From Candidatus Hydrogenedentota bacterium (GTDB lineage: Bacteria; Hydrogenedentota; Hydrogenedentia; Hydrogenedentales; SLHB01): a stretch of DNA of 64,000 bases. Positions 1-20,528 of the stretch are shown here, in pieces; position 1 is the first letter of the stretch, and each line of letters begins with the position of its first letter. The notes below the pieces were generated by a model, which saw nothing but the letters and a program-made list of their open reading frames with translations, searched no databases and was not told where the DNA came from. The position numbers were made by a program, and so were the translations under genes. The stretch covers positions 367,478-431,477 of the forward strand of contig CAVUWV010000001.1 in the NCBI GenBank assembly GCA_963745075.1, read 5' to 3'.

Positions 1-232
1 CGATCGCGTGAGCAATGAGTTCCAGCAGCTCCTCCTGCCGCTTGCCCAAGGAATCGGCAAAAACACCGATGGCGTCAACGTCCTCTGCACCCCCCACGAC
101 GGTCGCCGTTCCCGCCGGCAACGATTCGTCTTTGGCGACGCGCACGACTTCCATGTTGCCGTCGCCCGCATTCTCCGTCAAAAATCCGAATAGCGGCTCA
201 TTCTCGCCCACCACCACGATCCGTTTAAGCAT
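1..232 (-). CDS. 5' part of a protein running off the window edge (possibly an HD-GYP/signalling protein)
   Basis: Not in the ORF track. Manual translation from ATG at 232 gives MLKRIVVVGENEPLFGFLTENAGDG...RQEELLELIAHAI with no stop, preceded by a GAGGAG RBS on the minus strand. Function is a guess. Confidence 0.6.
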   Translation of the reverse strand, partial: MLKRIVVVGENEPLFGFLTENAGDGNMEVVRVAKDESLPAGTATVVGGAEDVDAIGVFADSLGKRQEELLELIAHAI

Positions 233-441
233 GAAACGCTCCTCGCATTCTGTGAATCGACCCCTCAACCGATTACGCAATCGCATCGCCATAGTAGCAA
301 CACCGTCGTCTTGCGGCAAGCGACTCGTCATTCGCAGCCGATTGGTGCGCGTGCACAAGACGCGGTGCCAGGCTGACTTGCCTCTTGTCTCGCACGCGGA
401 ATCTGGTATACTCGTTCGGGGACCGGGAAAAGGAGCATGCC

Positions 442-1401
442 ATGAAACGAGTCGGAATCTGCTTAGCCGTTCTAGGATGCATGATTATGATGGGTTGTCA
501 GCGGTACCAGTCCGGCGCCCCCCATGGCGCCATCGACGTCATCGCCCACCGGGGCGCCAGCGCCTACGCCCCCGAAAACACACTCGCGGCCTTCAAGCTG
601 GCCAAGGAAATGAGTGCGGACTGGTTCGAGCTGGACTGCACGCTGACCCATGACGGTGAAGTGGTGGTCATGCATGATGAAACCGTCGATCGCACGACGA
701 ACGGCAAAGGGTACGTCCGCGACCTGACCCTTTACGACATCAAACAGCTTGACGCCGGTTCGTGGTTCTCGCCGGAGTTCGCCGGAGAACGCGTTCCCAC
801 CCTGGGTCAGGCGCTCGATTTCGCCAAGTGGAACATCGGCGTCTACATCGAGATCAAGGACAGCGCGGACGACACCGCCCTCTTGGCGGCTATCCTCGAC
901 AAGGCCAAGGGCGACAAAGATGCCGGTCATCGGTTTAAGAATGAGATGATCGACATGATCGAGAAGAGCGAGTCGCGCAACCTCGAACTCACGCGCAAGG
1001 TGATCGAAGAAGTGCGGGTCCGCAAGATGCACCGGTACGTCGTCATCCAGTCCTTCTCGCCGATCGTGTGTGCCATCGTCATGAAAGAGGCGCCCGAGAT
1101 GCGCGTCGAATTCCTCGGCGGGTTCAAAGAAGGCGACACCGAGGGCTGGGAGCAGTATCTCCGGCTCGGCTACTTCTTCGACTTTGACGGTTTCAACATG
1201 AATGCCGACGCATTGACCATCGGCCGCCTCGCCGCCTTCCAGGACGCGGACAAGACGGTCGCAGTCTATACCGTCGACGATTTGGAAACCATGAAACGCT
1301 TCGTCGAATGGGGTGTCGACGGCATCATCACCAACAAGCCTGACCTTGCCCGCACCGTGACCGGCACGGTCAACCGCGCCGGCGGTCCGGCGGACCAATA
1401 G
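442..1401 (+). CDS. Glycerophosphodiester phosphodiesterase (GDPD family), probable lipoprotein
   Basis: Motifs IAHRGASAYAPENTLAAF, ELD, HDETVDRTT, IEIK and GVDGIITN. AGGAG RBS before ATG 442; N-terminal hydrophobic stretch ending in GC. Confidence 0.93.
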   Translation: MKRVGICLAVLGCMIMMGCQRYQSGAPHGAIDVIAHRGASAYAPENTLAAFKLAKEMSADWFELDCTLTHDGEVVVMHDETVDRTTNGKGYVRDLTLYDIKQLDAGSWFSPEFAGERVPTLGQALDFAKWNIGVYIEIKDSADDTALLAAILDKAKGDKDAGHRFKNEMIDMIEKSESRNLELTRKVIEEVRVRKMHRYVVIQSFSPIVCAIVMKEAPEMRVEFLGGFKEGDTEGWEQYLRLGYFFDFDGFNMNADALTIGRLAAFQDADKTVAVYTVDDLETMKRFVEWGVDGIITNKPDLARTVTGTVNRAGGPADQ

Positions 1402-1430
1402 ACGGCGGTTCAGAAAGCAAATATCGCAGC

Positions 1431-1454
1431 AGGGCGGGTTCTAGAACCCGCCCT
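1431..1454. terminator. Perfect palindrome, probable intrinsic terminator between convergent genes
   Basis: AGGGCGGGTTCTAGAACCCGCCCT followed by TCTTGTT. Confidence 0.7.
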
Positions 1455-1544
1455 TCTTGTTGATGCGGCTTGGACACGGCAGTCTGCTCCGCTGGTCTTG
1501 CTGGGCCGGAACACACCGTGCACGGCTCCTCCGCAGGCTTCCGT

Positions 1545-2327
1545 TCAACTGAGCAGATATTTGGTCAGGTGGTCCCACGCGTTCGTCTGCGCCACACGCA
1601 TGATGAGGAAACTCCAGACGACAAGTACGGCGTATCCCGTGGCGTAGTATCGGTCCCAGGACCGCGTCAGCAACCGCTTGACGACAAGGAACACCAATCC
1701 CAAAACCAGCACGCCAAAGAACGGACCGAACAGGGCGCCGCACAGGGTGCCCGCGTAGAGGTTTCTAATCGCTTCGACGCGGTCCGTGGCGGCGGGGATG
1801 GCAGCCATGGTGGCCAACAGCATCATGGGGCGATGGATCTTCACCCGCTTTCGGTTCCACACGCCGACGAAGACGAAAGCGCCGAAAAGCAGGATGCTGA
1901 AGAGCGGGACCGCCAGAAAACGGTTGGGTTCGAGATTCCACAGTTTGAGGTCCGGCGGGTTGACGCTCGCCGCCGCAAAGGCCACTTTGAGGCCCGCCAG
2001 CACGATGCCGGCCGCGAGCACCGCCCCAACACGGCCGGCCATCATATGAACGCGCCGGTTCCCGGTGACCACCAGGAGCGGCTGGGCCAGGAACAACAGC
2101 ATCCAAGCCGTCATCGCGATCCCGTGGAGGATCAGCCAGATTCGAATGGGCGGAGTGAGTTCCCGATGGGGGAATGCCTTGCCGTGCAGATAAAACTGCT
2201 GGAAACCCAGGAACATGATCGTCAGGAGCAGCAAGGCCGCTCCCGTGTAAAAGTAACGTCCGAAATCGATCTTTGCATGCGTCTTCGGTTGGGGTTCGTC
2301 CAATGATAAGGTCTGGCTCGTGCCCAT
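1545..2327 (-). CDS. Conserved-type multi-pass membrane protein, function unknown
   Basis: About 7 hydrophobic segments with His residues at helix ends (LHG, RVH, KIHRPMMLLAT); GAGG RBS upstream. Confidence 0.75.
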   Translation of the reverse strand: MGTSQTLSLDEPQPKTHAKIDFGRYFYTGAALLLLTIMFLGFQQFYLHGKAFPHRELTPPIRIWLILHGIAMTAWMLLFLAQPLLVVTGNRRVHMMAGRVGAVLAAGIVLAGLKVAFAAASVNPPDLKLWNLEPNRFLAVPLFSILLFGAFVFVGVWNRKRVKIHRPMMLLATMAAIPAATDRVEAIRNLYAGTLCGALFGPFFGVLVLGLVFLVVKRLLTRSWDRYYATGYAVLVVWSFLIMRVAQTNAWDHLTKYLLS

Positions 2328-2505
2328 GATTTGACAGTTCCTCTTTGTTTGAATGTGGCGCTCAACGCGCTCGATCCCCGGACCGGATCGGGGATCGATT
2401 CACCAGAAGCGCAGATAGTACTCCAAGTCATTTGAGAAAAGGTAGCGGAATCTCAAGCGTTTCGTCCGTCTCGTCCCTGCCATCCCCGTCCCTGCTGCCC
2501 CTGCT

Positions 2506-2535
2506 GTCCGTGTAGGTCCGTGTAGGTCCGTGTAG
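2506..2535 (+). repeat. Tandem 10-mer (GTCCGTGTAG)x3, preceded by GTCCCTGC-type units
   Basis: Read directly. The same unit recurs at 4214-4263 and inverted near 56630-56680. Confidence 0.9.
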
Positions 2536-2612
2536 GTCAAGTCCGCGTTCCATTGTTTCATTTCCCTCCGCACTGCAACGCCCCGGCCTATCTTTATAAG
2601 GAGATTTCCGCC

Positions 2613-4195
2613 ATGACAAACCACCCCAAACGCCCCCGCCCTCAAAAACGAACGAATCTCGGCACCCCCTGCGCCCGCACCTGGACCAACGACTGGATCG
2701 CCACCGTCAACGCCAAAGAAGCCGGAACTCAACCACCGAATCTGCGGCGCCCGCCTCCCCGACGCCACGCCCGTTGCACCAATGCTTCCGACCACCCCTC
2801 CGGCCGCTGCCCATTCCACGGCGGATTCGACCTCACCGGCGCACCCCCCGGCAACCGCAACCACGTAATCCACGGCCTCTACTCCCGCCGCCTGAGACCC
2901 TGCACCCCCAACTGCCCCCACTGGGAAAATTGCCCCCTCGCCAACCGTCATCCTCATCCTCTCGAACGCGGGGAACACGGGGACCCATCTTCTCTCCAGC
3001 CTTCTACAAATCCACAATCGGAAGACCCATCTTCGCAATCCCAAACGTCCGATCCGACCGATCGGTGCGATCCGTCCCATTCTTCCCAACCCCCAAACCC
3101 CACACCCCCGCAACAGGATCGTCATCCTCGCGACAGCGGGGACCCATCTTCCCAATCCGATCCGTCCAATTCTTCCGATCCGTCCTATAGGTCCCATACG
3201 TCCTATAGGTCCTATCCCCCCAACGCCACGCCGACGCAATCACCGCCCACCTGCCCCTACCAACTCGCCGAATACAACACCGTCCTCACCGACGCCCTTG
3301 CCGTCGTCGAATCCCAGCCCCACCCCAACCCCATGGGCATCCACGCCGCCCACAACGTCGCCATGCTCCAAGTCCTCGTCAACGCCGCCACCGCCCACTT
3401 AGCGCAAGCCCCAAACCTCGGGTCTTCCTCTGAAGCATGGCCTTCCCCCCCTGGGCACGGGCGTCCCGCCCGTGTTCTTCCTCTTCATCCGCGACATGGG
3501 CTTCAAGCCCATGTCCTCCCGAAAACCTTAACCCCAACACCATCCTCGCCTTCACCCGCCTCATGCGCGAGTACCGCCACACACTAAAACTTCTCCAAAC
3601 ACCGGGGTACACCCCCTTGAACCGTCACAATTCCGCGGGTGCACCCCCCTCCCCCGACGGCATCCTCCGCCACGTCCAACGCACCCAACACGACACCGGT
3701 CTCGACCCCGATTCCATCGCCGCCGCTCAACTCGAGCCCCAAACCCCCGAGACCCACGCCAAAGCCTACATCCAACGCGCCGCCCTCGCCGGAGGACAAG
3801 GTCGCGACGTGGAAATGTGCGAAGCCTTCGATAACGCCGCCCTCATCGACGAACCCTACGCCGAATCCGAACGCGATCACGTCCTGGCCAGCTACCGCCC
3901 CGCAAAACAATCCGTCTCCCAAGAACTCGCCGAACTCATCCTCGGCAACCTTCATCTGCCGCCCCGACCCACAACCCACGAACAGAACCCCGACACAACC
4001 AAGCCCAACACCGACCACCCAACAAACGAAGAATCCGACGATGTGCTCCAACACTTCCTCGACCTCATAAGAGAAGGGAAAATGCCCCCCGAAGCCTTCC
4101 CCATCGGCTCCCCCCTCCGAGCCCACGTTGAAGCCATCTACACCGGCCCACCCACCACCACAACCAAGCCCACCGGCGAAGCCGGCTCCGAGTAG
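2613..4195 (+). pseudogene. HGGxSTG-motif protein (terminase small subunit-like), frameshifted and interrupted by repeats
   Basis: AAGGAG RBS; motif GRCPFHGG..TGAPPGNRNHVIHGLYSRR. ICGARLPDATP lies in the +1 frame at 2725-2772. The frame changes near a C7 run at ~3445-3451 into ORF 3437..4195. May be intact if these indels are sequencing errors. Confidence 0.7.
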
Positions 4196-4213
4196 TCCTT
4201 ATCCGTCCATATC

Positions 4214-4263
4214 GTCCGTGTAAGTCCGTGTAAGTCCGTGTAAGTCCGTGTAAGTCCGTGTAG
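4214..4263 (+). repeat. Tandem 10-mer (GTCCGTGTAA)x5, last unit ending in G
   Basis: Read directly. Confidence 0.92.
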
Positions 4264-4269
4264 CCCAGT

Positions 4270-4344
4270 TGTAGCGCAGGCGTCCCCGCCTGCAATTCCT
4301 GAGACAGAACCCCAAAGAATGCAGGCGGGGACGCCTGCGCTACA
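4270..4344. repeat. Inverted pair of GTAG-type REP-like palindromes (REP doublet)
   Basis: TGTAGCGCAGGCGTCCCCGCCTGCA ... TGCAGGCGGGGACGCCTGCGCTACA; perfect inverted arms. Confidence 0.85.
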
Positions 4345-4377
4345 TCCGCCGCTCAACCCCGGAGTGAACCCCCAAAA

Positions 4378-6013
4378 ATGCTGCGCACCCCCAACCACCT
4401 ATCGTCCTCCCCCTACTACCCACCAAAGCTCAATAACGCAAGCAGGCTTGCCTCGCCGAAGCTGACAAGCGAAGGCGGGTCCATGTGTCCGTCCATCCCA
4501 TCCCGCACCCGCTTCGCCCGCCACTACCTCCGCGACCGCCACGGTTCCCCCTGGGCGCCTTGGCCGTATCAGTCTTTGTCCTTGGAATCCCTCGCACCTC
4601 GGAAGGTGCATTGCGATGGGCGGGATGTGGGGAAAACGTCGGAGATCGAGATCGTGGCGGCGTGGGCGTCGGTGATGCGGCCGAATTCGCAGATGTTGAT
4701 TGCGACGCAGTGTGAGAATCATTTGTTTCCGTTGATGGACCGGATCGTGCGGGTGTTTGAAAGCGATTCATGGAAAGAGGGACAGACCGGTCTCGACGGA
4801 ATGAAAGAGGGCAATGAAAGAGGGACATGGGCGTGGAAAAGAGGGACAGACACGTCTCGCTTCGCTCGCTTGCGTCAGTCCCTCTTTTCCGGTCGCTGGG
4901 GTCAGTCCCTTGGTGGAGGTGAAGCGGACGCCGTCGTGGTGTTTGCGGTTTGCGAACGGGTTTGTGTTGTGGGGGCGGATTGCGGGGCCGCACGGGATGA
5001 ATTTCCAGGGGCTGCACGTGGATTGGCAGATTGTCGACGAGGCGCAGGAGATGACGGATGCGGCGTGGGAGGAGATGTTTCAGGCGTTGAACGCCGGCGG
5101 GTGGCGCTGGGTGTATGGGGTGCCGAACGGGTTGCGGAACACGTTTCACCGGATGACGACGGACCCGGACGCGGAGCAGTACAACTGGCCGTCGTCGTCG
5201 AATCCGGCGTGGTCGGCGGAGAAGGAGGCGGAGTTGGCGCGGCTGTATGGCGGCAAGGATTCGCCGGGGTACATCCATCGGGTGCTGGGGCAACACGGTT
5301 CGCCGGCGTATGCGGTGTTCGATCTGAATGCGTATCTCGCGTGTGTGGACGGGGGGCTGGAGTGGTTCGAGGCGTCGCTGGGGGAGGACGATCCCTTCGA
5401 GGCACCGTCGGGCGTGGCGAAGGGCACCCATTATCTGGGCTGCGACCTGGGGTACGTGCGCGATCCGTCGGAGTTTGTGATCTACCGGAGTGCGCCGCCG
5501 GATTTGGTGAACGTGGGGCGGGTACACTTGCACGGGGTCAATTATCATCGGCAGCAGGGCATCATCGAGGAGTTGGATCGCGCGTATGACTTCCGGGCGA
5601 TCGGCATCGATGCGGGGAACAACGGGAGCGCGGTGGCGCATAACCTGAAGAACATCGACGTGGACTGGCATGAGAAGGTCATGGCGTTCGAGTTCGGGGG
5701 CGTATGCGAAGCGGGGTCGTTTCCGGACGGGTCGCCGGACCGGCGTCCGACGAAGCTGTTCATGACGGAGCTGTTGCAGCGGCGGATGGCGGACCGGACG
5801 ATTGTGTTTCCGCCGCCGGCGGATCGGGAGTCGCAGTACGCGGGGCACACGTATACCGCCGGGATGCGGGGGCAGGTCCTGTTCGACAAGGGGAACGACC
5901 ACATTATCGACGCGGATCGGTGCGCGGTGCTGGCGCATTACCTCGACACGCAGGAGGTGGGGGCGCAGAACGTCGGTGGGTACTATCCCCGTCTCCGGTT
6001 GGAGGCGTTTTAG
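4378..6013 (+). pseudogene. Phage terminase large subunit-like protein (ATPase plus RNase H-like nuclease), one frameshift
   Basis: Q motif WPYQ, Walker A GRDVGKT, Walker B WQIVDEAQ, coupling region GVPNG, nuclease acidic motifs LGCDLG, GIDAGNNG and DHIIDA. Split between ORFs 4378..5589 and 4814..6013 by a 13-nt duplication at 4801-4826. Start may be ATG 4483. Confidence 0.85.
4771..4910. repeat. GAAAGAGGGACAGAC-type repeat/hairpin cluster inside the terminase gene
   Basis: Four AAAGAGGG(AC) units, plus an inverted pair GGAAAAGAGGGACAGAC...GTCAGTCCCTCTTTTCC. Confidence 0.75.
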
Positions 6014-6043
6014 TGTTGCAAGTTGGCGAATCCCTTACAATTC

Positions 6044-6108
6044 AATCGAAATCGAAATCGAAATCGAATTGCAAAGGCAACGTGTCTGCGATTTCGATCC
6101 CGATTTCG
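6044..6108. repeat. (AATCGA)x4 hexamer array with an inverted CGATTT-type partner
   Basis: Read directly, in the convergent gap between the terminase and the TA pair. Confidence 0.8.
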
Positions 6109-6156
6109 GCAGCGGCGAGACTGGCATGCTGCGCAGTCAGGAGCGCGCGGCGCAAC

Positions 6157-6402
6157 TTACGTATCGGACGTGACATTTTCGCGCCAGCGCGCTTCAATCG
6201 TGTCAGCGGAAAGATCGGCCCCGCACCGCCACTCGACATAGTAGCTCCCGTTGCGAACCTGGGAAAACTCGACCCAGTTTCGCAACGGCACAAAGGCCGG
6301 CGATTCGAAATACGGGCGAACATCGAAGATGCCGGAGCGGCCGTCTTCGGCGACCACATGCAGCGTGCCGTTTTCCTGTGGAGTGACCGTTGCGATTCTC
6401 AC
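6157..6402 (-). CDS. DUF2442-family protein (putative antitoxin)
   Basis: GTG start overlaps the upstream TGA (GTGA). Motifs DG.SGIFDV.PY and VEWRCGADLSADTI. Confidence 0.8.
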   Translation of the reverse strand: MRIATVTPQENGTLHVVAEDGRSGIFDVRPYFESPAFVPLRNWVEFSQVRNGSYYVEWRCGADLSADTIEARWRENVTSDT

Positions 6403-6671
6403 TGATCCAATCCTCGAATAGGCAAGGGATTCTGGCCGTTTACAGCCAGTTCCCAATCCGCCATCAAGTCTTCCTGATGAATCTCGATCCAGGCGACCAC
6501 CAGTTTATGCTTCTTCGGCGGCAGACTACCTGCCAACACGCTTCCGTCCGCAATCGAATACACGGCGACCTCGCCCTGATAGTCCGCATGAATGTGTGGC
6601 AAGTGATGTCTGTCTGTGTCGTGAAAGAACATTCGGATCAAAATGCCGTAGAACATCGATATCGTAGGCAT
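6399..6671 (-). CDS. DUF4160-family protein (putative toxin)
   Basis: MPTISMFYGILIRMFF..D.HHLPHIHA.Y and LVVAWIEIHQEDLMADW; AGGAG RBS. Confidence 0.88.
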   Translation of the reverse strand: MPTISMFYGILIRMFFHDTDRHHLPHIHADYQGEVAVYSIADGSVLAGSLPPKKHKLVVAWIEIHQEDLMADWELAVNGQNPLPIRGLDQ

Positions 6672-6848
6672 GCGACCTGCTCCTGTTTCTCACGGCGCCC
6701 AGAGATGACCGATGTATCCAGTTTTCTCGGAGCAACGGCCATCCATAGCTTACGCAGTCATTATTCCACGTCAATCGCGCCCCGGTCTACCTCGTCCGTG
6801 GTAGTTTCCACGGGGGCCGCCTCCCCTACTTGCGCCGCCGTCTCGCCG

Positions 6849-7775
6849 CTACCCTTTCAGCGCGCCGACGGTGATGCCGCGGGTGAGTTGCCGCTGCAAG
6901 AGGATGTACACGAAGAGCGTGGGGAGCAACACGATGACCAGTCCCGCGAACATCAACCCGAAATCGGTCTTGTACTGGGCCTGAATGCTGACCGCGGCCA
7001 GACCGAGCGGCAGGGTCTTGTGGGAGTCCGAGTTCACGAAGACGAGGGCGAAGAGGTATTCGTTCCAGATGCCGAGGAAGTTGAAGATGGCGGCGGTAAC
7101 CAAACCGGGTTTTGCGAGCGGGAGCATGATGTGGCGGAACACGCTGTACTCCGAGCAGCCGTCGATGATGCCCGCTTCGCGCAGGGTGCCGGGGAGGGAT
7201 TTGAAGAAGCCGGTCAACACGAGAATCGTAAACGGAAGACTGAGGGCGACGTAGATCGTGATGAGCCCCGTGAAGGTATCGTGCAGGTGCATCTCGTATC
7301 CCAGGGGCGACAACAGCGCGGTGCCCCATCGCGATAACGCGGTGAATTGAAAAAAGAGGGGGATGAGCACGAGTTGCGCGGGGATCATCAGGCCGCTGAC
7401 GAAGTAGAGGAAGAGCAGCCGGCTTCCGCGGAATGGGAATTTGGCGAGTACGTAGGCCGCCATCGCGGACACGCCGAGGATCCCCAACAAGGAGATCGAT
7501 GTGACCAGGATGCTGTTGAAGAAGAACCGGCTGAACTTCGATTTCACCCAGGCCTTCTGGTAGTTGGACACCACGGCCTGCGCCGGCGTTTCCACATCCG
7601 GGTTGTCGGCATAAGGGGAACCGGTAACCAACCAGGGAATGCCAAAGGGGTCTTCGACGAACTCTTTGGAACTGCGGGCCGAACTTGCAACGACCCACAG
7701 CAAGGGCATCACCACGGCCAGCAACCAGACGACCAGGATGAAATAGAGCGCTATGCGTCCCAATGCCGAAATCAT
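6849..7775 (-). CDS. Carbohydrate ABC transporter permease (MalG-type)
   Basis: EAA loop LREAGIIDGCS, WNEYLFAL, KTLPLGL, C-terminal GITVGALKG. ATG 7775 overlaps the upstream stop. Confidence 0.93.
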   Translation of the reverse strand: MISALGRIALYFILVVWLLAVVMPLLWVVASSARSSKEFVEDPFGIPWLVTGSPYADNPDVETPAQAVVSNYQKAWVKSKFSRFFFNSILVTSISLLGILGVSAMAAYVLAKFPFRGSRLLFLYFVSGLMIPAQLVLIPLFFQFTALSRWGTALLSPLGYEMHLHDTFTGLITIYVALSLPFTILVLTGFFKSLPGTLREAGIIDGCSEYSVFRHIMLPLAKPGLVTAAIFNFLGIWNEYLFALVFVNSDSHKTLPLGLAAVSIQAQYKTDFGLMFAGLVIVLLPTLFVYILLQRQLTRGITVGALKG

Positions 7776-8677
7776 CAGTATTCCAAGGCCTCCCTCCGGG
7801 AAAACCGCAACGTTACCAGTGTTGCCAGAAACACGAGGACAAACAGCATGACCGCCACGGCGGACCCGTAGCCGACGTTGTATTCGCTGAACACCTTTTG
7901 GTAGAGCAGCGTCGCCATGACGTGGGTCTCGCGCGAGGGCCATTCGTTGTCCATGATCCACACGGCCTCGAACAGTTTGAGACTCGTGATAACGAGAAAG
8001 ACGATGCCGACGACGAGCACTTCGCGGATCAGGGGCAGGGTGATATGCCAAAACTGACGAAACGGGGAGGCGCCTTCCAATTCCGCGACTTCGTAGAAGG
8101 ACTCCGGGATTCCTTCCATGGCGGCCAGAAACAACACCATGTAGAAGCCGGTCATGGTCCATACCAACATCGGCACGATGGAATAGATGAGGTACTGCTT
8201 GCCCGTGAAGGGGAAGGGGAGATCGAGGGTGGGCCAGTGAAAATGGGCCTGCAACCACGCGAGAAATCCGTTCACGACGCCGAATTCCGTGGTGCTGTAC
8301 AGGAGGACCCAAAGCAGCGCGATGGCAACCGATGCAATGACGTTGGGGAAGAAAAACGCGACGCGGAAGATGGCAGCCCCGCGAACGCGCCGATGCAGGA
8401 CCGATGCGAAGAACAGCGAAAGCACCAGGACCATGCTGCCGGCGGTGACGGTCAAAAACACGTTGTGCCCGAGAGCCAGCCGGAACAACCCGTCATCCGT
8501 GAACAATGCGCGGAAATTCGCCAATCCGACCCATTTGGGCGTCGAGAGGCCGTCCCATTTTTCGAGGCTGTACAGCAGCGCCCGCACGCCGGGGATCGCC
8601 ACGAATCCAGTGAACAGCAGAAACGCCGGTGTCAGAAACGTGAGGATGAAGACCGTCTGTTCCCGCGTGCGTTTCAC
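7775..8677 (-). CDS. Carbohydrate ABC transporter permease (MalF-type)
   Basis: WVGLANF and the EAA loop YEVAELEGASPFRQFWHITLPL. Confidence 0.93.
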   Translation of the reverse strand: MKRTREQTVFILTFLTPAFLLFTGFVAIPGVRALLYSLEKWDGLSTPKWVGLANFRALFTDDGLFRLALGHNVFLTVTAGSMVLVLSLFFASVLHRRVRGAAIFRVAFFFPNVIASVAIALLWVLLYSTTEFGVVNGFLAWLQAHFHWPTLDLPFPFTGKQYLIYSIVPMLVWTMTGFYMVLFLAAMEGIPESFYEVAELEGASPFRQFWHITLPLIREVLVVGIVFLVITSLKLFEAVWIMDNEWPSRETHVMATLLYQKVFSEYNVGYGSAVAVMLFVLVFLATLVTLRFSRREALEY

Positions 8678-10071
8678 GGTTTTTCTCCGAAGGCCGTGGG
8701 GTCGTAGGGGGAGAAGTTTGGAATGATGGTGTCAGGATTGGCACGGGCGCGCGTGATGCCGTCGTCCATCCGTTTGCCGAATTCTTCGGGCGTAATGGAT
8801 CCCTCGAGCAACGCGCCCAGCGCGGGAGTCATGACTTGCTGCGTCCATTCCAGAAGCAAGGTATCGAGCCGCACATTGAAAATGCCGGGCGCGCCATGGA
8901 TGCGCGATGCGTCCATCATGTCGAGAACCGATTGCAGCGCCGGGGTGACGGCCGACCGGGGCGTTCCCTCTTGGATGGGGGAAATGACGCCGATACTCGC
9001 GCCCATGTCCGGCGCGTTCCGCGGCGACACCATGAAGCGCGTGAAGTCTGCGGCGATATCCGTGTACCGGCCGTCCGACGGCATGTAGACACACTCGGCG
9101 CCCAGTCCGTTGAATAGTTTGGGATTGCCGTTGCCGCCGTCGACCGCGGGGACGTTGAAACAACGCAATTCGAAGCCCGGGGGGATGATGTCCTTTTGCT
9201 CGTTCTCGAGCCAGACCCCGCAAAAGATCATCGCCGCGCGATTGTTGCAGAACTGAAGCTGGCTCTCGGTGTGGGTCATGGCCATGGCGCCCCGTTGAAA
9301 GTAGTGGGTCGCCATCTCCTGGAGCAAGCGCGCGGCCCACAACGCGTCCGGTTCGCTGAAGGCGCCGGGTTCCAATGCGTTCATGCGATTGATTAGCGAG
9401 AGCCCGCCGCATCGTTGCGCGAGCGAGATGTAGGTGAACCACGAGTAATACGGATATTTCCCCTGAAACGCGATGGGGGCGATTCCTTCGGATTGGATTT
9501 GCTCGCACAAGGTCTCGAACGCGGACCACGTGGTGGGGATGTTCCACCCGTGCTCGCGGAACTGGCGGGCGTCGTACCAGCAGCCCCAGGCGCCGAAGCT
9601 CGTTGGGATGGCGTAGACGTGGCCGTCGCTTTTGTACGCGTCGAGCGTACCGGGAATAAAGAGGTCTCTCCAAGGTCTGTCGCTGCCGTACGCCGGTTTG
9701 TCGAGTTCGTCGTCGAATGGTTTCAACTTCCCGGTACTGATCATCAGCCAGAGGGGCAAGCGGTTATCCAGAACCAGCGCCGGCGGGTCACCGCGCAAGA
9801 CCCGCGGTTTAATCTTTTCGGCAATGCGGGGTTCTCCCCAGAGGTCGATTTCGATGCCATCGTCGCGATGGGCGGCCGTGTATTCGGCCGCGATCTTTTG
9901 ATGCCAGTAGATGCCGTAGCCCCCTTCAAAAACGGCTACCTCGACGTGGCGGATAGCACCTTCCCCGACCTGGGCCGGCCGGATGACGCCGTCCCAGAAC
10001 AAGAAACCGATGCAGCACACAATCGCGACGAAGACGCCTGCGAGACCGGATATGCGAAGGAGCAGATTCAC
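8674..10071 (-). CDS. Sugar ABC transporter substrate-binding protein (resembles NgcE-type amino-sugar binders)
   Basis: N-terminal membrane anchor, VAVFEGGYG, DGHVYAIP, PTTWSAF, AAMIFCGVWLENE. First gene of a translationally coupled operon. Substrate is inferred. Confidence 0.88.
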   Translation of the reverse strand: MNLLLRISGLAGVFVAIVCCIGFLFWDGVIRPAQVGEGAIRHVEVAVFEGGYGIYWHQKIAAEYTAAHRDDGIEIDLWGEPRIAEKIKPRVLRGDPPALVLDNRLPLWLMISTGKLKPFDDELDKPAYGSDRPWRDLFIPGTLDAYKSDGHVYAIPTSFGAWGCWYDARQFREHGWNIPTTWSAFETLCEQIQSEGIAPIAFQGKYPYYSWFTYISLAQRCGGLSLINRMNALEPGAFSEPDALWAARLLQEMATHYFQRGAMAMTHTESQLQFCNNRAAMIFCGVWLENEQKDIIPPGFELRCFNVPAVDGGNGNPKLFNGLGAECVYMPSDGRYTDIAADFTRFMVSPRNAPDMGASIGVISPIQEGTPRSAVTPALQSVLDMMDASRIHGAPGIFNVRLDTLLLEWTQQVMTPALGALLEGSITPEEFGKRMDDGITRARANPDTIIPNFSPYDPTAFGEKP

Positions 10072-10201
10072 GCAGCGATTGTAGTGACTCGTCGTGGAGG
10101 AGGCAAGACAGCAACGAGGCGCGGGGAGTCGTCGTGCAGCCTGCCTCCGACCCTGCTATAATGCGAAGACAGCGATGTCAACGGGGTACAGAGGGGGCTT
10201 C

Positions 10202-11251
10202 ATGTCAAGTGTCGATGAGGTTGAACGGTATTTTGAGGTTGGCCGCGCCGTCGTCCTGCAATCGAAGCGGATCCAGGGGGAAGAGGGACGCGTGCGCACG
10301 TTCGTGCGCGGTTGGCAGCGGGGCGCCTACCTGTTGTTGGATGTCCCGCGCAAAGAAGTGGGAAATGCGTCGCTTCGCGTGAACGACCCCTGCGTGCTCC
10401 GGTTTCTTGCGGAGGGAGACGCGTGCGGATGCAACGCGGAGGTGGAGGATCTCGGCACGGGATCCCACTTCTCGTATATCCGGGTCACCTGGCCCCGCGA
10501 CGTATCCTGCGTTCGGGTACGAAAGTACGAGCGCGTTCACGTGCACACTTCTTGTTCCGTACGTTTGGACAACGACAAAACGATTGAAGGAGAACTGGTC
10601 GACCTGAGCGCGGGCGGCTGCAAAGTCCGAGTGCCGCATATCCTGCCAAAGGGGGACCGAATCGTAATGTCTTTTTGCCTGCCGGACGGTTCCGCGGTTG
10701 ATGAGATCGTGGCGGTCGTTTGCGCGTCGGCCGAGGATTCAGAGGGCGCCTGGGTCGGGTGCGAATACCACGACCCGGAGGAAGGGGCCATCTACGATAT
10801 CGAGTTTTTTGTCGCGGCCACGCTTGCCCGTCTGCGCGCGGAACCCCCGGAGAGTCCGCATGTACTTGTCATTGAACCGGACTTGAGCAAGGTGAACGAC
10901 CTTCGCATCGGGCTCAAATCTGCCGGATACGAAGTAATCCTGGCGCCCGGTCCTGTGGATGGTTTCTTCTGGTTGCGTTTGTCGACGCCGTCCGTCCTGG
11001 TGGCTTCGGCCGAGCAGCAGGTCATCAGCGGAGCGGACATTGTCGGAATCATAAAGACAACCCGTCAATTCAAAAATCTGCCCGTTATCGTATACGGCGG
11101 CGACGCCACCATCGGGAAACGGGCGATGGAAGCGGGCGCGGCATTTCACGTGCCATCAGCGGCCGACGTGCAGAAGATTACCGGCGCGGTAAAAGAGTTA
11201 ATCGAAAAGAATGCGCGCAAACCCGAGGAAACCGCCGGCACCGGCCTCTGA
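10202..11251 (+). CDS. YcgR-like N-terminal domain + PilZ domain + C-terminal receiver-like domain
   Basis: PilZ motifs RKYER (RxxxR) and DLSAGG (DxSxxG). C-terminal HVLVIE...LPVIVY...AMEAGA resembles a REC fold. Confidence 0.85.
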   Translation: MSSVDEVERYFEVGRAVVLQSKRIQGEEGRVRTFVRGWQRGAYLLLDVPRKEVGNASLRVNDPCVLRFLAEGDACGCNAEVEDLGTGSHFSYIRVTWPRDVSCVRVRKYERVHVHTSCSVRLDNDKTIEGELVDLSAGGCKVRVPHILPKGDRIVMSFCLPDGSAVDEIVAVVCASAEDSEGAWVGCEYHDPEEGAIYDIEFFVAATLARLRAEPPESPHVLVIEPDLSKVNDLRIGLKSAGYEVILAPGPVDGFFWLRLSTPSVLVASAEQQVISGADIVGIIKTTRQFKNLPVIVYGGDATIGKRAMEAGAAFHVPSAADVQKITGAVKELIEKNARKPEETAGTGL

Positions 11252-11255
11252 ATGC

Positions 11256-12383
11256 TCAAAACACCCGCAGAACGATGCAGTTCAAGTAGGCGGTTTCGGG
11301 CATGGTCAAGAGGACCGGATGATCCCGAGCGGCCCCACGTTCTTCCAGGACCCACACGTCGCGCTGCGCGGCCCGTGCAGCCCGCTTCAAGACTTCGACA
11401 AACGCCGGTCCGTCCATGAAATGGGAACAGGTGCTCGTGACCAGATACCCGCCCGGTTCGACCGCCTCCATGGCATCCCGGTTCAACGCCTGATACAACC
11501 CCGCGGCTTTGCGGCTCTGGCCGCGTGACTTTGCGAAGGCCGGGGGATCCAGTATCACGAGGTCGTACCGTTGGCCCCGTTGGAGCGCGGTGCGCACGTC
11601 CACGCATTCGAAAATGCACCGATCGCTGAGCGCGTTCCGTTCCGCATTGCGCCTGGCGTGCGCGATGGCCGTCTCCGAAGAATCGACCGCCAATACCGAC
11701 GCGGCGCCGGCCGCCGCCATATGGCAAGCCCATTGCCCCGAATAACAATGCCCGTCGAAGACTCGGGCGCCGCGGGCCAATGAACGTGCCGCGAGTACGT
11801 TCTCCCGCTGATCCAGAAATGCACCGGTCTTTTGTCCGCGCTCAAGATCAACTACGAATTGCAATCCACCGTGGCTCACTTCAACGGAACCCGGCGCCTC
11901 GCCCGCGTTGCGCCGGCCGCCCGGCAGGTTCAGTTGTACGCCTTCGACGCCATCGTGGCGCGTGAGGATCGAGGCGAGGGCGTCCCCGTACGCCGCGTAA
12001 AACGCGCATCCGGACTGAACGACCGCAACCGGCCCGTACCGGTCGATCACCATGCCCGGCAACCGGTCGCTCTCGCCATGAACCCAGCGATAGAAAGTTT
12101 CCCCCGGATACAAGCGGTCGCGAAACTGCTTCGCCTGCGCGATACGACGCTCGAGCAAATCTGTATCGACCGTCTCCGTCTCGCGTTTTGTGATCAACCG
12201 AATCGCGATTCCGCCGGTTGCCTGGTAAAAACCCCTGCCGACGAACCGGCCCCGGTCCGACACGATGTCGACCACCGTTCCGTCTTCCACCCGAGGCAAT
12301 CGCGCGAACTCATTCCGGTAGGCCCACAAATGCCCGCGCAACAGGCGGCGGTCTTCTTTTGCTTTTAAGATTGCTGTATCCAT
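11256..12383 (-). CDS. rlmI: RlmI/RlmK-like SAM-dependent rRNA methyltransferase
   Basis: PUA-like GHLWAYRNE, HGESDRLPGMVIDRY, GQKTGAFLDQR, LDPPAFAK, LVTSTCS and PETAYL. Confidence 0.85.
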   Translation of the reverse strand: MDTAILKAKEDRRLLRGHLWAYRNEFARLPRVEDGTVVDIVSDRGRFVGRGFYQATGGIAIRLITKRETETVDTDLLERRIAQAKQFRDRLYPGETFYRWVHGESDRLPGMVIDRYGPVAVVQSGCAFYAAYGDALASILTRHDGVEGVQLNLPGGRRNAGEAPGSVEVSHGGLQFVVDLERGQKTGAFLDQRENVLAARSLARGARVFDGHCYSGQWACHMAAAGAASVLAVDSSETAIAHARRNAERNALSDRCIFECVDVRTALQRGQRYDLVILDPPAFAKSRGQSRKAAGLYQALNRDAMEAVEPGGYLVTSTCSHFMDGPAFVEVLKRAARAAQRDVWVLEERGAARDHPVLLTMPETAYLNCIVLRVF

Positions 12384-12505
12384 AAGCGGAAGAGTGTACC
12401 GCAAACCGGCGTGTACTTGCGAGGAAATTGTTGTCAGGAATTTGTTGTCGTTCGGGCCGATTCGCCCACCGCCGCCGAACCGTGGACATCCGGACAGCCA
12501 AAAGA

Positions 12506-12534
12506 TTGATCCGTTCCCCGTCGTTCGCTATACT
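12506..12534 (+). promoter_or_regulatory. Sigma-70 promoter of tRNA-Ala
   Basis: TTGATC-17 nt-TATACT, 20 nt upstream of the tRNA. Confidence 0.75.
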
Positions 12535-12554
12535 ATCGCCTCGTCTGAACCCAT

Positions 12555-12630
12555 GGGGATGTAGCTCAGTTGGGAGAGCGCTTGTCTGGCAGACAAGAGG
12601 TCAGGGGTTCGATTCCCCTCATCTCCACCA
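12555..12630 (+). tRNA. tRNA-Ala(GGC)
   Basis: 76-nt cloverleaf: acceptor GGGGATG/CATCTCC with G3:U70, anticodon arm CTTGT-CTGGCAG-ACAAG, GGTTCGATT T-loop, encoded CCA. Confidence 0.97.
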
Positions 12631-12644
12631 TCTAACACATTAAT

Positions 12645-12685
12645 GACCGCTGGGTTACAAGAATGGCTCGGCGGTCTTTGTTTTT
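12645..12685 (+). terminator. Probable intrinsic terminator after the tRNA
   Basis: GACCGCTGGG...CTCGGCGGTC stem followed by TTTGTTTTT. Confidence 0.6.
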
Positions 12686-12870
12686 GCCTGCCCGGTTTGT
12701 AAGTCCGCCCTGATGCCGAGGCATCAACAATTCGAGCGTCACGCCAAAACGGTCCACGCGTGCGCGTAGTGTCCAATCGGTGTGCGTTCCTGCACTTTCG
12801 TTTCCCATGTCGCTCGTTGTGTATCGTTGTTGGCTGACGTTCGCTTCGGGGATTACACGAGGTACGTGCC

Positions 12871-13408
12871 GTGTCGCGATGGAACCTTCTCGCCGGGGAT
12901 TTCGGTCCGTCCGGCTTTTCTGAGTTCGTCGCCAAACTCGTCGATGGTGCGATTACCGGGAGCATCGGTGACCATTACGTACTATGGGAAACCGCTGACA
13001 TCGGGCAATTGACCGGCGCACTACGCATTGGTTGCCACGTTCTCTTGGTGAGCAACTTGTGGTATGTGGGCAGCGGGGATGCCGGGTTTGACCTTACGGT
13101 TGCGTCACTCGACTTCATGAGCCGACTTCGAGTGGCGACGGATGCACCGATTACTCGCGGTCTTCGGATATGCCGAGGAAGCGAACTACGCCGGCATGCT
13201 GATTCATGCAGGCGCCGACTTCGCGACTCGTGTTCCGTTTGATCCGAAGCTGTTTCAGGAAGGGTGTTGCGCTTTCTTACTCCCCTCCCGTGAAGATGCT
13301 GTAGTCGCGCATTACCTGCTAATCGTATTGCGTGATTTGGTTAGGGCAGTGTATTATGGCGGGTGTACCGGGACGATGCAATATTACAACGCCACGGCAC
13401 AAGTGTGA
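12871..13408 (+). pseudogene. Frameshifted ORF with a receiver-like C-terminus
   Basis: Removing one base near 13153 joins ...FMSRLRVATDAPI to LAVFGYAEEANYAGMLIHAGADFATRVPFDP, which resembles the beta4-beta5 region of a REC domain. Confidence 0.45.
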
Positions 13409-13579
13409 ACACGGTATCACTCGTCAAGCTGGTTTGAATGACGAATAGCCTAAGACGATTAGGATGAGAAGTAGAGATAAGAGCTAAGCGAACAAGTCGC
13501 TGGACATGTATCGCCTGGAGCAACACCGGCTGCGCCGTCAGATGAACTGTCGGCGTGAGTGTTACCCAAGGAGAAGGCA

Positions 13580-13855
13580 ATGACCAAAAAGTATTGGCCA
13601 ACGGAACGGCAGAAGCGAAGGCAATGTCTGGCAGCAGTGATACTAACAATATGTGCTGTGCTCGACGCATACGTACTTCTTAGGAACTTCGATGCTTCGT
13701 ATGTGTTGGTCGAGATTCTCCTGGTAGCGTGCGCGGTTTTGCAGTGGAGCATCTACCTCAGCATTCAGACACAACTCGACATTAAGGCAATCCTGACGAG
13801 TCAAGAACCAGATGACGATGGGGCGCATAACAAGCCGAATGCAGGAGACGCTTGA
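13580..13855 (+). CDS. Small two-TM membrane protein, cassette-like
   Basis: AAGGAG RBS, two hydrophobic helices; the stop codon lies inside the attC-like hairpin. Confidence 0.6.
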   Translation: MTKKYWPTERQKRRQCLAAVILTICAVLDAYVLLRNFDASYVLVEILLVACAVLQWSIYLSIQTQLDIKAILTSQEPDDDGAHNKPNAGDA

Positions 13856-13882
13856 CAGCGCTCTTAGTCCGTGACGTACCGC
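13825..13882 (+). mobile_element. Degenerate integron attC-like site
   Basis: GCATAAC-AAGCCGAATGCAGGAGACGCT-TGAC-AGCGCTCTTAGTCCGTGAC-GTACCGC: an imperfect hairpin starting at an AAC box and overlapping the ORF end. Confidence 0.5.
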
Positions 13883-14010
13883 ACCGATTGAGAATATACG
13901 CAAACAAGCTCCGCCGAATGGCAGGCCAAACACGATGAGGTGCTGCACGAAAAGTGGAGAGTTGACGAGGGTATCATGCGGCGAATTGACCAAGGGAAAT
14001 GGGGGAACGT

Positions 14011-14473
14011 ATGGAGTACGACACGTCGGTTGCGTTCCACGGGCCGGCCGGGGGAGCCATTGAAAAGGCGCGTTTGAGCGTCACGTCGAACGGCTTCAAA
14101 CTGGGCCACGTCAGCGAGACGCAACTGGTGGCGACCGGCCCGGGGATGCACAGCACGAAGCAGAGTCCGATACTGGGCGCAACGCGCATTACGATCACTG
14201 TTTCCGGAGGCTTTATCGACGTGCAGGCTGCACTTGGGGCGTCACGTTCATGCAACTGTTTGTGTTTCTCTTTCCTCCGGCTCTTGTGGGGATTCTGACC
14301 TTCAGCTTTTGCTTCAGGCCAGAAGTTCCGAAGCATATCTTACTCCTACCGCTTGCGCGACTTTTGCCATGGGCGGTTATATCGCCCTGATGGCCCGGGG
14401 CATCAAGAACCGGACGAGGGAGGCACTGGATGATTTCGCCCAGTACATTGCATTCGTTGGGTTGACGGATTAA
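14011..14473 (+). pseudogene. Membrane protein gene with several frameshifts, cassette-like
   Basis: MEYDTSVAF...GPGMHSTKQSPILGATRI continues in other frames as FMQLFVFLFPPALVG and LMARGIKNRTREALDD. It ends in GATTAAC followed by a short hairpin. Confidence 0.55.
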
Positions 14474-14955
14474 CCAGCGCATGCGGCAGTCCGCGGATAC
14501 GCCGAACGTCAGGCAGCGGCCAATGCGCTCTCCTTAGTGAAGTACCCCAGCGCCGGTTGAAAAGGGCCTTAGGCGTTAGCCTACTTGGCGGATTGGGTTG
14601 CGAGGAGATGGGGCTGACCTGGCCCTGAGTTTCTGCGAAAGGCGTCGATGTGCGGAAGGCTACCTCAGGAGGGTTGAGAATTCCAGACTAAACTTTCTTC
14701 CGCGGCCCATCCATGGTCAACCCAGAACCGTTGGGCGCCGTTTCGGAAGATTTCGGCTGGGATGGCGGTGCGTTGACATTTGGTCACACCGGACTATAGC
14801 CTTCGCTGCGCAACTCTTCGGTCAGGGTAGCAATCGTCGTATGACAGTGGATCGACTCTTTGGCGATTCATGATGGGAACACCGCATTCCGTCGCGGGAG
14901 AAGCAGGGGCGCCGCAGCGAGTGGGCGCGACCGTTACCGACGGGGAGGTTATGGG

Positions 14956-15981
14956 ATGTCGCGATATCTGGCCGGTTCTTGGCGGTCCGGAATCCGAGTG
15001 GCGTTGGTATCCGGCGTACTCGTTTTCATCGTCTGTGTCACGACGGGATGTCCAACCAGCCCACCTTATATCGAGATCAGCGAATCGCAGCACGTGTTCG
15101 GGCAGGATGAAAACCAGTGGGTGTTTCACGTTCGGAACAGTGGTGGGAGGGGGGCTATGTTCTTCCAGGTCGCCGCAACTGTTTCGTGGCTGGAGGTGCG
15201 GCCGGAGCGAGCGTTCAGCCTGGGTCCGAATGACCTGGTACCGGTTTGGGTTCACGTTCGCCGGTCTTCCATTCCGAAGGCTTCGGTACAAGCGCGGGTC
15301 GTCGTGTCATCTACGCAGGCGCCCTATGACAGCGCTGCAGCAGTTTATCTGGATACCGGAAGCTCGGACGAAGTCTTTGTGCGGGATTACTTCCCGTTGC
15401 GTAAGGGGGCTACGTGGCGGTATTCGCCTTCGGGGCTGAAAGGATCGCCCGGCGAACCGTGGAGTGAGCTGCAAATACAACGGGTCTTCTACCGGGGCGG
15501 CATTCGTGTCGCGGAGGCGACCTATCGTATTGCCGGCGAGGCCAAGGTTGCCGTCGTGTACATCGCGTTGATTTCTGAGATACCGGTGGTGGTGAGGAGT
15601 AACACGCGAGCAATTCAGTCGCTGCCAAATACCGAGCGATTTTGGGATCTTGCATTTGACGACGTTGTTCCGTCGTGGTTATTTACCGGCGTATATGAAC
15701 CGGGGGTCGATCAACTGAACTCCAACACGACTCGGTACAGCACGGCGCCTTTGAACGATCTGACCCCCATTCATGTTGAAAGCGGCGACCTTGGACCCTA
15801 CGAGTCCGGCGCGTTCGGGGTAGACGGCGATACGCCCTGCCTCGCGACGCATACGCCGACGGGGCCTCCGTGGTCGGATGTGCGCTACTACGTCGATCTG
15901 TTAGGGCGTGGTATTGGCCCGTTGCTTGATCCTTTTGGCAATGGCGCGTTGATTTTCTTCGATCCGGGCGAAACACCGTAA
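14956..15981 (+). CDS. Putative lipoprotein with a BACON-like Ig domain
   Basis: GGAGG RBS, lipobox TTGC-P, VRNSGG...VSWLEVRP pattern, then DYFPL..GATWRY. Confidence 0.7.
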   Translation: MSRYLAGSWRSGIRVALVSGVLVFIVCVTTGCPTSPPYIEISESQHVFGQDENQWVFHVRNSGGRGAMFFQVAATVSWLEVRPERAFSLGPNDLVPVWVHVRRSSIPKASVQARVVVSSTQAPYDSAAAVYLDTGSSDEVFVRDYFPLRKGATWRYSPSGLKGSPGEPWSELQIQRVFYRGGIRVAEATYRIAGEAKVAVVYIALISEIPVVVRSNTRAIQSLPNTERFWDLAFDDVVPSWLFTGVYEPGVDQLNSNTTRYSTAPLNDLTPIHVESGDLGPYESGAFGVDGDTPCLATHTPTGPPWSDVRYYVDLLGRGIGPLLDPFGNGALIFFDPGETP

Positions 15982-16259
15982 CCACGTTCTACGCGGGTGT
16001 GGGCTATCGGCATCTGCTGGAGCGGCGGAAACCACGGAATCTGGATCGTTCGCTCTCGGCGAAACCTTCACGACGATGTGAGAAGAATCTCGCGCAGCAA
16101 AGAGCCGGTTGGGCTGGTTCGCGTGCTCTTCCGGAATTCTTGCCCGGTTTTTGGAATCATTTCGTACATTGCGCGTTTTCGTGCACGTCCCTATAATCAG
16201 CGCCGGATCGGTTTTTCATTGAACGATAGTGCTTCGGAACCATTGGATGTGTGCGTGCC

Positions 16260-18086: not shown

Positions 18087-18185
18087 CCACTGCGCTGGTC
18101 AGAATCTGTCCAGGGCGAGCGGTAAACCGAAGTTTGAAGGTGTATTATTTTTTATTAACATGACTGAGACTATGGATTTCGGAGG

Positions 18186-18201
18186 TGGCATGATCGTTGC
18201 G
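18186..18201 (+). promoter_or_regulatory. Sigma-54 (-24/-12) promoter upstream of the activator gene
   Basis: TGGCATGATCGTTGCG matches GG-N10-GC. Confidence 0.7.
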
Positions 18202-18326
18202 TTGGCGGCACCAGAGTGCAGAACGCCAGGCACGTGTTCCGGGCGTGAACAGGATTGGTGCTCGATATGCTTGCTCCAGCGTCAAACTTTTCGGTTGCGG
18301 AATGCAGGGAGCTGGGGACCCGAAGT

Positions 18327-19682: not shown

Positions 19683-19795
19683 TTCAATCTAACCGAAATT
19701 TCGTCTGCAAGGCAGAAGAATTCTTTGTCAACGCCGATTCCGGCTTTCCCCTCCACGCCGGCCGACGCTGACCTCGTTAACAGGAGGTAGTCGTT

Positions 19796-20443: not shown

Positions 20444-20449
20444 TTGTGA

Positions 20450-20485
20450 AAATCCCGTGCGAGTGTATGCTCTCGCACGGGATTT
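20450..20485. terminator. 14-bp hairpin between convergent genes
   Basis: AAATCCCGTGCGAG / CTCGCACGGGATTT. Confidence 0.7.
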
Positions 20486-20528
20486 GCGTCACGTAGGTCT
20501 TATTCCGGCGTAATCGTCCCGTCTTGTT

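Follow-up and report, generated by a model that had tools for sequence, protein, structure and literature searches.

Why should the composition of a DNA strand reverse abruptly within a single gene? The question is raised by a 64,000-nucleotide stretch of a Candidatus Hydrogenedentota bacterium (GCA_963745075.1, contig CAVUWV010000001.1, positions 367,478 to 431,477), hereafter the window, in which the + strand turns from C/A-rich to G/T-rich inside a gene for a large terminase subunit (TerL), downstream of a second gene here called S (Table 1). The flip proves to be the sharp core of a much longer origin-like inversion, whose left arm spans about 80 kb and whose right arm about 50 kb, and this long inversion is present where S is and absent where S is not. 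On the strength of profile matches and structure models, S is a small terminase (TerS). The two-gene module sits at reversals of strand bias, where it probably makes a machinery resembling a gene transfer agent (GTA) start cutting the chromosome.

An earlier note on this DNA had described an extreme flip inside the terminase gene, and its hand counts were exact on recount (30 C and 9 G at 3661-3720; 29 G and 11 C at 5041-5100). Over broader intervals, the + strand holds 878 C and 380 G at 2550-4560, and 333 C and 577 G at 4561-6013. The cumulative G-C curve reaches its minimum at 4600 and the cumulative (G+T)-(A+C) curve at 4551, with a two-state change point of the skew at 4598-4605. When measured with 1.4-kb arms, the step at the flip amounts to 0.65 and is the largest of 134,147 positions scanned across the genome (standard deviation 0.061); ranks 2-4 are the 3' ends of three S paralogs. 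This genome, G000, comprises 6.8 Mb in 36 contigs with a completeness of 89.7%. At four-fold degenerate third positions, the pieces of S have G/C counts of 6/47, 1/31 and 9/95 (skew about -0.8 to -0.9), and TerL begins in the same way (1/12 in codons 1-24, skew -0.85), then turns to 24/0 in codons 39-94 and to 52/6, 50/11 and 49/9 in pieces of its body (+0.64 to +0.79). The genome mean of per-gene four-fold skew is -0.02, with a standard deviation of 0.19 (4,278 genes), single-gene values being approximate because genes were called with a crude codon model built for the analysis. That the switch happens in one reading frame, as had been claimed, holds for TerL codons 1-94 and fails beyond them, where TerL is broken by an insertion and a frameshift.

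The feature is not confined to 2550-6013, as had been supposed, since host genes on both sides take part in it. Plotted along the whole genome, four-fold skew traces a saw-tooth in which abrupt C-to-G jumps alternate with gradual declines, and the skews of + and - genes agree (r=0.76, 322 bins); gene orientation, considered as a cause, proved uncorrelated with skew (rho 0.03). At the window, the track passes from -0.10 to -0.23 over 80 kb on the left to +0.15 to +0.30 at 10-60 kb on the right, and the origin-like C-to-G polarity noted earlier is thus present and two-sided. Two genomes of the same genus have neither S nor TerL at the orthologous site, where one has a 100-base gap and the other a 587-base interval, and their skew there is flat. 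Across 44 left-flank orthologs, encoded on both strands, 1284 four-fold sites carry G in the relative and C in G000 versus 808 with the reverse; the right flank, with just 3-4 orthologs, leans weakly the opposite way, as expected (70/85 and 69/93). The reciprocal comparison gives the same picture, in that an S copy in the relative G106 is flanked by skews of -0.20 (21 genes) and +0.19 (4 genes), versus +0.10 and -0.09 for the G000 orthologs without S. Two further sites from this comparison correspond to the end of a G000 contig and, with the same skew in either genome, are uninformative.

S was found in 32 of 135 genomes of the phylum, often in multiple copies at unrelated places, and the clade to which the window's S belongs in 13; these and the other counts rest on incomplete metagenome-assembled genomes, and kin among them are not independent. 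All 23 copies examined of that clade have a C-rich coding strand. S lies on skew jumps in G106, G095, G082 and G097 as well, and members of a second S clade do so in G093 (-0.46 to +0.37 and -0.25 to +0.51, with a weak third copy) and in G048.

Loci related to TerL, drawn mainly from records titled Ca. Hydrogenedentota, separate the influence of position from that of the gene. In a tree of 24 TerL copies (L010, L021 and L027 left aside), ten form a derived, skewed clade with support of 100/100 and are all G-rich in the body; the core TerL copies are near balance, that of G000 being slightly G. At reference codons 30-55, four-fold G/C is 2/12 in the window, 6/10 in L006, 5/10 in L007 (the same DNA as L059) and 2/8 in a fusion of S and TerL from G095, versus 16/0 in the C24 paralog, 12/0 in L008, 11/0 in L009, 10/1 in L012 and 11/0 in L013, L011 being truncated in this comparison. 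Where S is visible, it stands in tandem with TerL in the C-rich group and divergently in the G-rich group; in divergent loci the flip falls at the 3' end of S, not inside TerL. Position, not gene, sets the bias. The same TerL codons being C-rich or G-rich by locus, together with the agreement between gene strands, supports the proposal that strand-asymmetric processing recurs at a fixed point and depends neither on gene orientation nor on protein selection. Among homologous loci, L006, L007 and the G095 fusion share the in-gene flip; in five of the ten members of the skewed clade the whole gene is G-rich, so there is no unique flip position.

These comparisons also bear on a recombination joint, in which a C-rich S module would have met a G-rich TerL allele, each with a bias acquired elsewhere, and 4570 would be an ordinary position. 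The switch is sharp, identity to the C24 paralog (93% by BLASTN) begins at about 4549, and the two copies have an insertion further downstream in common. Such a joint leaves unexplained the long host arms and their absence at empty sites, as well as the C-rich 5' alleles, which occur in two separate branches of the TerL tree and diverge fast among themselves (synonymous divergence, pS, of 0.71 versus 0.31 in the body). We regard it as an improbable explanation of the flip, one that may apply to the exact switch position only. Among skewed-clade pairs, pS of the codon-30-55 segment is 0.71-0.88 versus 0.19-0.44 in the body, a rapid divergence with which local hypermutation and recombination would both be compatible.

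An assembly artefact or chance is more improbable still, to the point of being scarcely credible. The assembly does contain indel-type breaks in core genes, and its rpoB/rpoC region lies in pieces, but the same in-gene flip recurs in separate assemblies (L006, L007 and the G095 fusion), the flanks are syntenic with those of relatives, and a step of first rank genome-wide is hard to ascribe to accident. Individual genes are another matter. In the window, S is split by a REP-like insert and a frameshift at about 3410-3520, and the frameshifts of S and TerL both lie at repeat insertions; since S is intact in paralogs (474 aa) and relatives (490 aa), and since core genes are split in the same assembly, these breaks may be assembly errors. 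The catalytic motifs of TerL are readable in 23 of 24 copies; the exception is C24, whose Walker A is out of frame.

What, then, do the two genes encode? TerL matches phrog_2 (E 3e-15) and the solved TerL 4zni (E 3e-5); the functional labels given to its motifs are those usual for TerL. For S, the TerS family phrog_9231 is matched by 58 of 78 family members (best E 2e-6) and phrog_1889 by 37 of 78, with the N-terminal motif alone aligned for the first member, and NF041373 scored above cut-off for one of four S proteins tested. The split open reading frames (ORFs) of the window's own S gave no family match in profile searches, and a first search of the protein Atlas with S returned leads under 0.9 and nothing better. 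A full-length S model, tried for fold identification, had no clear fold match, and a compact relative was used instead. Its model (pLDDT 91) has a helix-helix-beta-hairpin-helix arrangement, and its Foldseek neighbours include many named TerS, the first at rank 6 (E 2.5e-3); the structural match to HK97 TerS stands at rank 2 with Z 7.0, a root-mean-square deviation of 2.7 and 83 aligned positions, below the stand-out level of Z 8. Four copies of the S relative P0103 are predicted to bind one another with a score of 0.69 versus 0.01 for the best control (contact agreement at least 71%, pLDDT at least 71), passing a mark that 20 of 30 solved homo-pairs and one of 23 single chains reach, although resemblance to solved TerS rings may itself account for the pass. 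The fusion in G095 is a natural S-TerL protein of 947 aa, and S and TerL are neighbours, in tandem or divergent, at several loci; the majority of S copies have no adjacent TerL. No relatives of S were found among viruses in IMG/VR or in phage records.

Inside S lies a 19-nt motif, found by BLAST among the peak regions, with 37 exact matches in G000. It is present in 14 of 135 genomes, versus none for the reversed pattern used as a control, all within four genera that have the window's S clade, a co-occurrence that makes it a candidate packaging site for binding by S. Most copies belong to short units in which a small ORF and the motif accompany the leader of S. Motif clusters in G000 have a mean jump of +0.092, positive in 14 of 21 (resampling p 1.5e-4), and the 7% of the genome within 10 kb of a motif holds 8 of the 17 upward jumps of at least 0.18 and none of seven downward ones, although both tests are partly circular, the motif having first been seen in peak regions, and ignore autocorrelation. 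Five motif-only sites in two relatives, chosen by flank length from 33 matches, all have higher skew downstream than upstream (one upstream flank being only 1.3 kb), and two more sites with a downstream flank only are positive. A purely one-directional effect, suggested by G000 (downstream +0.093, 20 of 24 positive; upstream -0.013, 9 of 22 positive), was set aside because it was not repeated in the relatives, and the motif as a hairpin found no support in any of four copies (z-scores of -1.3 to +1.2). Contigs of G109 hold 80 motif copies, often in triplets 104-132 bases apart, which suggests active spread of the short units.

The leader of S, presumably an ECF-sigma-like promoter to judge by consensus shapes, links the module to a second set of genes. 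Its TGCAAC element precedes the G000 portal gene, terS and portal of L021, terS of L017 and three of four other portal loci, and among the sites inspected it is absent before the G000 core terS, the L021 terL and L223. The terminase had been called an orphan, which it is not. Among the 135 genomes, TerL relatives occur in 121, a divergent Mu-type portal in 115 and the major capsid protein in 114 (in 83, 79 and 78 of 86 good genomes, respectively), mostly as single copies, and in 52 a short gene can be detected upstream of core TerL. The divergent portal is found in none of 14 control genomes, and an HK97-type portal in only 15 of 135. The G000 cluster at C8:463-472 kb has genes for portal, capsid, Dit (E 3e-12) and a virion structural protein, together with a weak match to a holin (E 0.012), and L021 provides one genome in which terS and terL are linked to portal and capsid genes. 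A search of G000 for portals of the HK97, SPP1 and lambda types found none. The core TerS-like protein of 173 aa has no NCBIfam or PHROG match and an Atlas row at 0.90 with Terminase_4 in 56% of members. Among the subset of ORFs scanned from the G000 and L021 clusters, there are no replication or integration genes. As known here from its genes, the phylum carries a vertically inherited, GTA-like packaging set, and the conserved cluster appears to have the pattern that a GTA shows in genomes. The G000 cluster (C8:463000-472400, or L214:5064-14355, - strand) lies 10-20 kb from the genome's largest skew jump; portal-gene skew in other genomes is inconsistent in sign. Separate from it, an HK97-type capsid fragment occurs at G000:C14:65537-66004.

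We lean towards the reading that S, with or without TerL, is a selfish, site-specific packaging-start module of this GTA-like system, with replication forks running outward from its cuts. The helper would be the vertically inherited set of a short TerS-like gene, TerL, portal, capsid, tail parts and holin. S, which is mobile and multicopy and has the same promoter-like leader, would be a second, DNA-binding TerS; in one clade it travels with a TerL paralog of its own. On induction of the GTA regulon, S would bind within or close to its own gene as well as at the motif-only derivatives, and TerL would cut at the bound site, so that packaging starts at the element. Recombination-dependent replication might then repair the DNA ends. 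This could happen in cells that survive an abortive cut, where the cut end may invade the sister chromosome, or in recipients, where a packaged fragment that starts at the site may recombine; both routes would send forks outward. Outward forks would render the strand that runs 5'-3' away from the site G/T-rich. The extreme core of 1-2 kb would be an old bias carried by the module, and the arms of 50-80 kb would have been built in host genes after insertion. Of the pac-like cut with resection and repair suggested in the earlier note, the pac-like part gains support, given that S is a likely TerS and that the portal and capsid cluster is conserved. Resection as the direct cause is not supported, on account of its sign: 5'-3' resection would presumably expose the + strand to the left of the cut, whose decay would leave the opposite sign, whereas outward forks would give the one observed. 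A bolder version, tentative though worth entertaining, is a new class of mobile elements, 'GTA satellites' of one or two genes, in which a DNA-binding TerS, alone or accompanied by a TerL, is combined with target motifs that have been amplified, and which would capture an undescribed phylum-wide GTA and whose cuts would be recurring replication starts that rewrite strand bias over 100-kb domains.

Several points weigh against this account. Cuts, particles and forks are inferred from sequence, and the largest share of words found in any sequencing run was 0.08. Because producer cells normally lyse, how a cut would lead to an inherited mutation is guesswork. Pac packaging usually runs in one direction, whereas the effect looks one-sided in G000 but two-sided in relatives. 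Three S sites have no or only a weak long jump (G000 C27, G096:C27 and G093 at 1649 kb), the 5 kb downstream of S are G-rich in just 17 of 23 loci, and second-clade S genes have neither the strict motif nor the extreme C-rich core. Both G000 copies of the skewed-clade TerL are frameshifted in the assembly, and the core terS-terL locus is unskewed. Four-fold sites are saturated (56% differ), which makes the mutation type unreadable, and the circularity of the motif tests counts here too. Finally, for 9 of the 17 upward jumps in G000, among them the two largest (C8 at about 453 kb and C18 at about 18 kb), the nearest motif is more than 10 kb away, and G069 has one jump without S; a host process therefore makes such jumps too.

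This last point leads to a host chromosome with many origins, at whose open sites S and the motif merely insert, as short repeats do. In addition to the jumps lacking S or motif, unrelated short repeats are likewise enriched at jumps, the dnaA of G069 lies in a flat stretch, and no two-replichore pattern appears in two complete chromosomes from the phylum, of which 30 and 10 places were sampled; this itself implies a host multi-site process besides S. Multi-origin replication with irregular skew is known in cyanobacteria, according to the part of the report used here (PMC7198777). Against this reading stand the orthologous empty sites, which are flat or reversed in both directions of comparison, and the retention of dnaA in 127 of 135 genomes, and we judge it rather improbable. 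The same 127 genomes have a DnaA C-terminal domain, which G000 lacks; a dnaA-less lineage was considered and dropped, as the Bac_DnaA match at C36:54 kb is an ATPase domain inside another protein, and the gap in G000 is more plausibly read as assembly incompleteness. Other strong origin-like jumps without S or motif in G000 lie at C10 (about 390 kb), about 18 kb from dnaN and DnaA-box clusters, and at C36 (about 122-126 kb). The C18 jump at about 18-19 kb falls in an AT-rich gap that includes a stretch resembling a tRNA and is followed by a gene resembling recA, both labels being given by eye. A k-mer scan for a motif shared by S-less jumps gave repeat fragments and leader-like words only. A different pattern appears in L021 and at G034:C1:1.76-1.91 Mb, where skew is blocky, with four-fold values up to +0.7 and a change of sign every 10-40 kb, unlike the saw-tooth of G000.

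A third possibility dispenses with the terminase cut: S binding, or transcription from the leader, might start local run-off replication and so amplify the flanking DNA, much as the phage-derived origin linked to the Bartonella GTA does, which would make the module a selfish bidirectional origin. The window and the motif sites of relatives show a two-sided, origin-like polarity, the arms decay over tens of kilobases, and the lack of a neighbouring TerL at most S copies would be no obstacle. Yet no gene for a helicase, primase or Rep is visible in the island, the fold of S is that of a TerS, a fusion with TerL exists, and no DnaA-box cluster lies at the site; we consider this origin unlikely, if still worth keeping in view. 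The scan for DnaA boxes, run with the usual box consensus, found no cluster at the switch and clusters only at C9:166.8 kb and at C10:407.6 and 409.3 kb, the latter beside dnaN. At G000:C10:407500-409900, dnaN is flanked by these clusters and has no dnaA beside it. A chromosome with a conventional oriC would have one switch of this sign, and G000 has 17 upward jumps.

Table 1. Features of the window and its island, with positions counted from the first letter of the stretch.
Feature	Positions	Strand	Description
Left arm, start	1..2550	.	+ strand of host genes C-rich; runs about 80 kb left of the window in contig C1
10-nt tandem repeat	2496..2548, again 4204-4276	+	Short dispersed repeat type with copies elsewhere in the genome
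Promoter-like leader	2573..2612	+	TGCAAC, then AT-rich box and ribosome-binding site; common to four S copies, motif-only units and GTA-like cluster genes
Gene S	2613..4195	+	TerS-like; C-rich coding strand; N-terminal HGGxSTG Cys/His domain, helix-hairpin-helix oligomerisation domain, helical C-terminal part
Conserved motif in S	3612..3646	+	Consensus CCCCCTTGWHYCGTCAMAA, often then GGGTGCACCCC; 37-38 copies genome-wide; candidate pac-like or initiation site
REP-like 25-bp inverted repeat	4270..4344	.	Dispersed family, not specific to skew jumps
TerL of derived skewed clade	4483..6013	+	Start codon uncertain; Walker A, Walker B and three nuclease aspartate motifs; pN/pS about 0.1
Skew switch point	4551..4605	.	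Near TerL codons 25-40; synonymous divergence two to four times that of the gene body
Palindromic insertion with frameshift in TerL	about 4768-4915		
Right arm	6014..58000	.	Host genes G-rich on +; four-fold about +0.2 to +0.3 from about 13 kb, weak in first 10 kb
DUF2442/DUF4160 gene pair	6157..6671	-	Same insertion hot spot; unskewed

Apart from S and TerL, the island holds a membrane-protein gene and the DUF4160/DUF2442 pair, which we take to be a toxin-antitoxin-like cassette, and nothing else. Short ORFs with flanking palindromes, probably transposase-like, occur in the S-TerL gap of L059 (8278-8730) and at the empty orthologous site in G106 (C9, about 80 kb), and such sites therefore appear to be insertion hot spots. 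The S-TerL gap of L002 (8200-9300 and 11300-12100) contains arrays of short-repeat fragments, with the G-rich strand oriented as the local skew. Elsewhere in the window, short ORFs of lower GC content extend from tRNA-Ala(GGC) at 12555-12630 to about 16 kb and may form an island, and 60500-64000, at the contig end, is low in GC and C/A-rich, with a long T run and no called genes, and looks foreign or mis-joined.

Taken together, the data suggest that a GTA-like system extends through an entire phylum and that selfish elements possibly steer its packaging, which bears on how GTAs choose their start sites and why they persist. In the comparison of occupied and empty sites, an element of 1.5-3.5 kb is accompanied by a mutational footprint of origin-like form that covers about 100 kb of chromosome. 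Sites of packaging or initiation could thus be mapped in uncultured bacteria from sequence alone, and a switch in GC skew should not be taken as proof of an oriC. If the bolder version is true, the skew map would record where packaging begins, and terminase-made breaks might serve as extra origins.

No known system matches the whole. Titles and abstract openings yielded no published description of an S/TerL system (0 papers for HGGxSTG), and no published GTA for Hydrogenedentota or GTA skew footprint was found in the literature, most subscription papers and supplements being outside the scope of the search, so that a listing in a supplementary table is possible. The switch at the window has the same sign as a bacterial oriC, and the partly consulted account of multi-origin cyanobacteria describes irregular chromosome-wide skew (PMC7198777); S-type switches differ from both in being many per chromosome, in decaying with distance and in being gained or lost with a mobile gene, and the window's has no DnaA boxes. 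The run-off origin of Bartonella, linked to BaGTA, is phage-derived and its effect fades in both directions; it is single, conserved and located by a helicase gene, and 'skew' is absent from the paper's main text, the part used here (PMC2697382). S sites differ in being many, mobile and equipped with terminase genes, and no helicase gene was matched among the island ORFs. The MIGE of giant viruses, as far as the excerpt at hand describes them, combine a non-coding leader with one zinc-finger ORF, are multicopy and spread in an unknown mode (10.1101/299784); S resembles them by description, with its leader, single ORF and multiple copies, although its relatives were not found in viral collections. 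The GTAs themselves (RcGTA, DsGTA, CcGTA and BaGTA) are alike in retaining head, packaging and tail genes by vertical descent. For DsGTA, seven packaging peaks are described, from which packaging was proposed to run both ways (PMC5786225), and known GTA TerS are without a DNA-binding domain, with no site motif found, within the passages drawn on (PMC11841831, PMC5786225), from which S differs by its Cys/His HGGxSTG domain and dispersed motif. Comparable in logic are the Staphylococcus aureus pathogenicity islands (SaPI) and phage-inducible chromosomal islands (PICI), whose own TerS, in the sections consulted, redirects the helper TerL to the element's sites, while dispersed pseudo-pac sites direct the packaging of host genes (PMC6687093). 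The S module does not belong among them, as no integrase, primase or Rep gene is present among the island ORFs, it consists of only 1-2 genes and is multicopy at unrelated sites, its presumed helper is a domesticated cluster rather than a phage, and its effect is often two-sided; the likeness is to a SaPI small terminase with its pseudo-pac sites.

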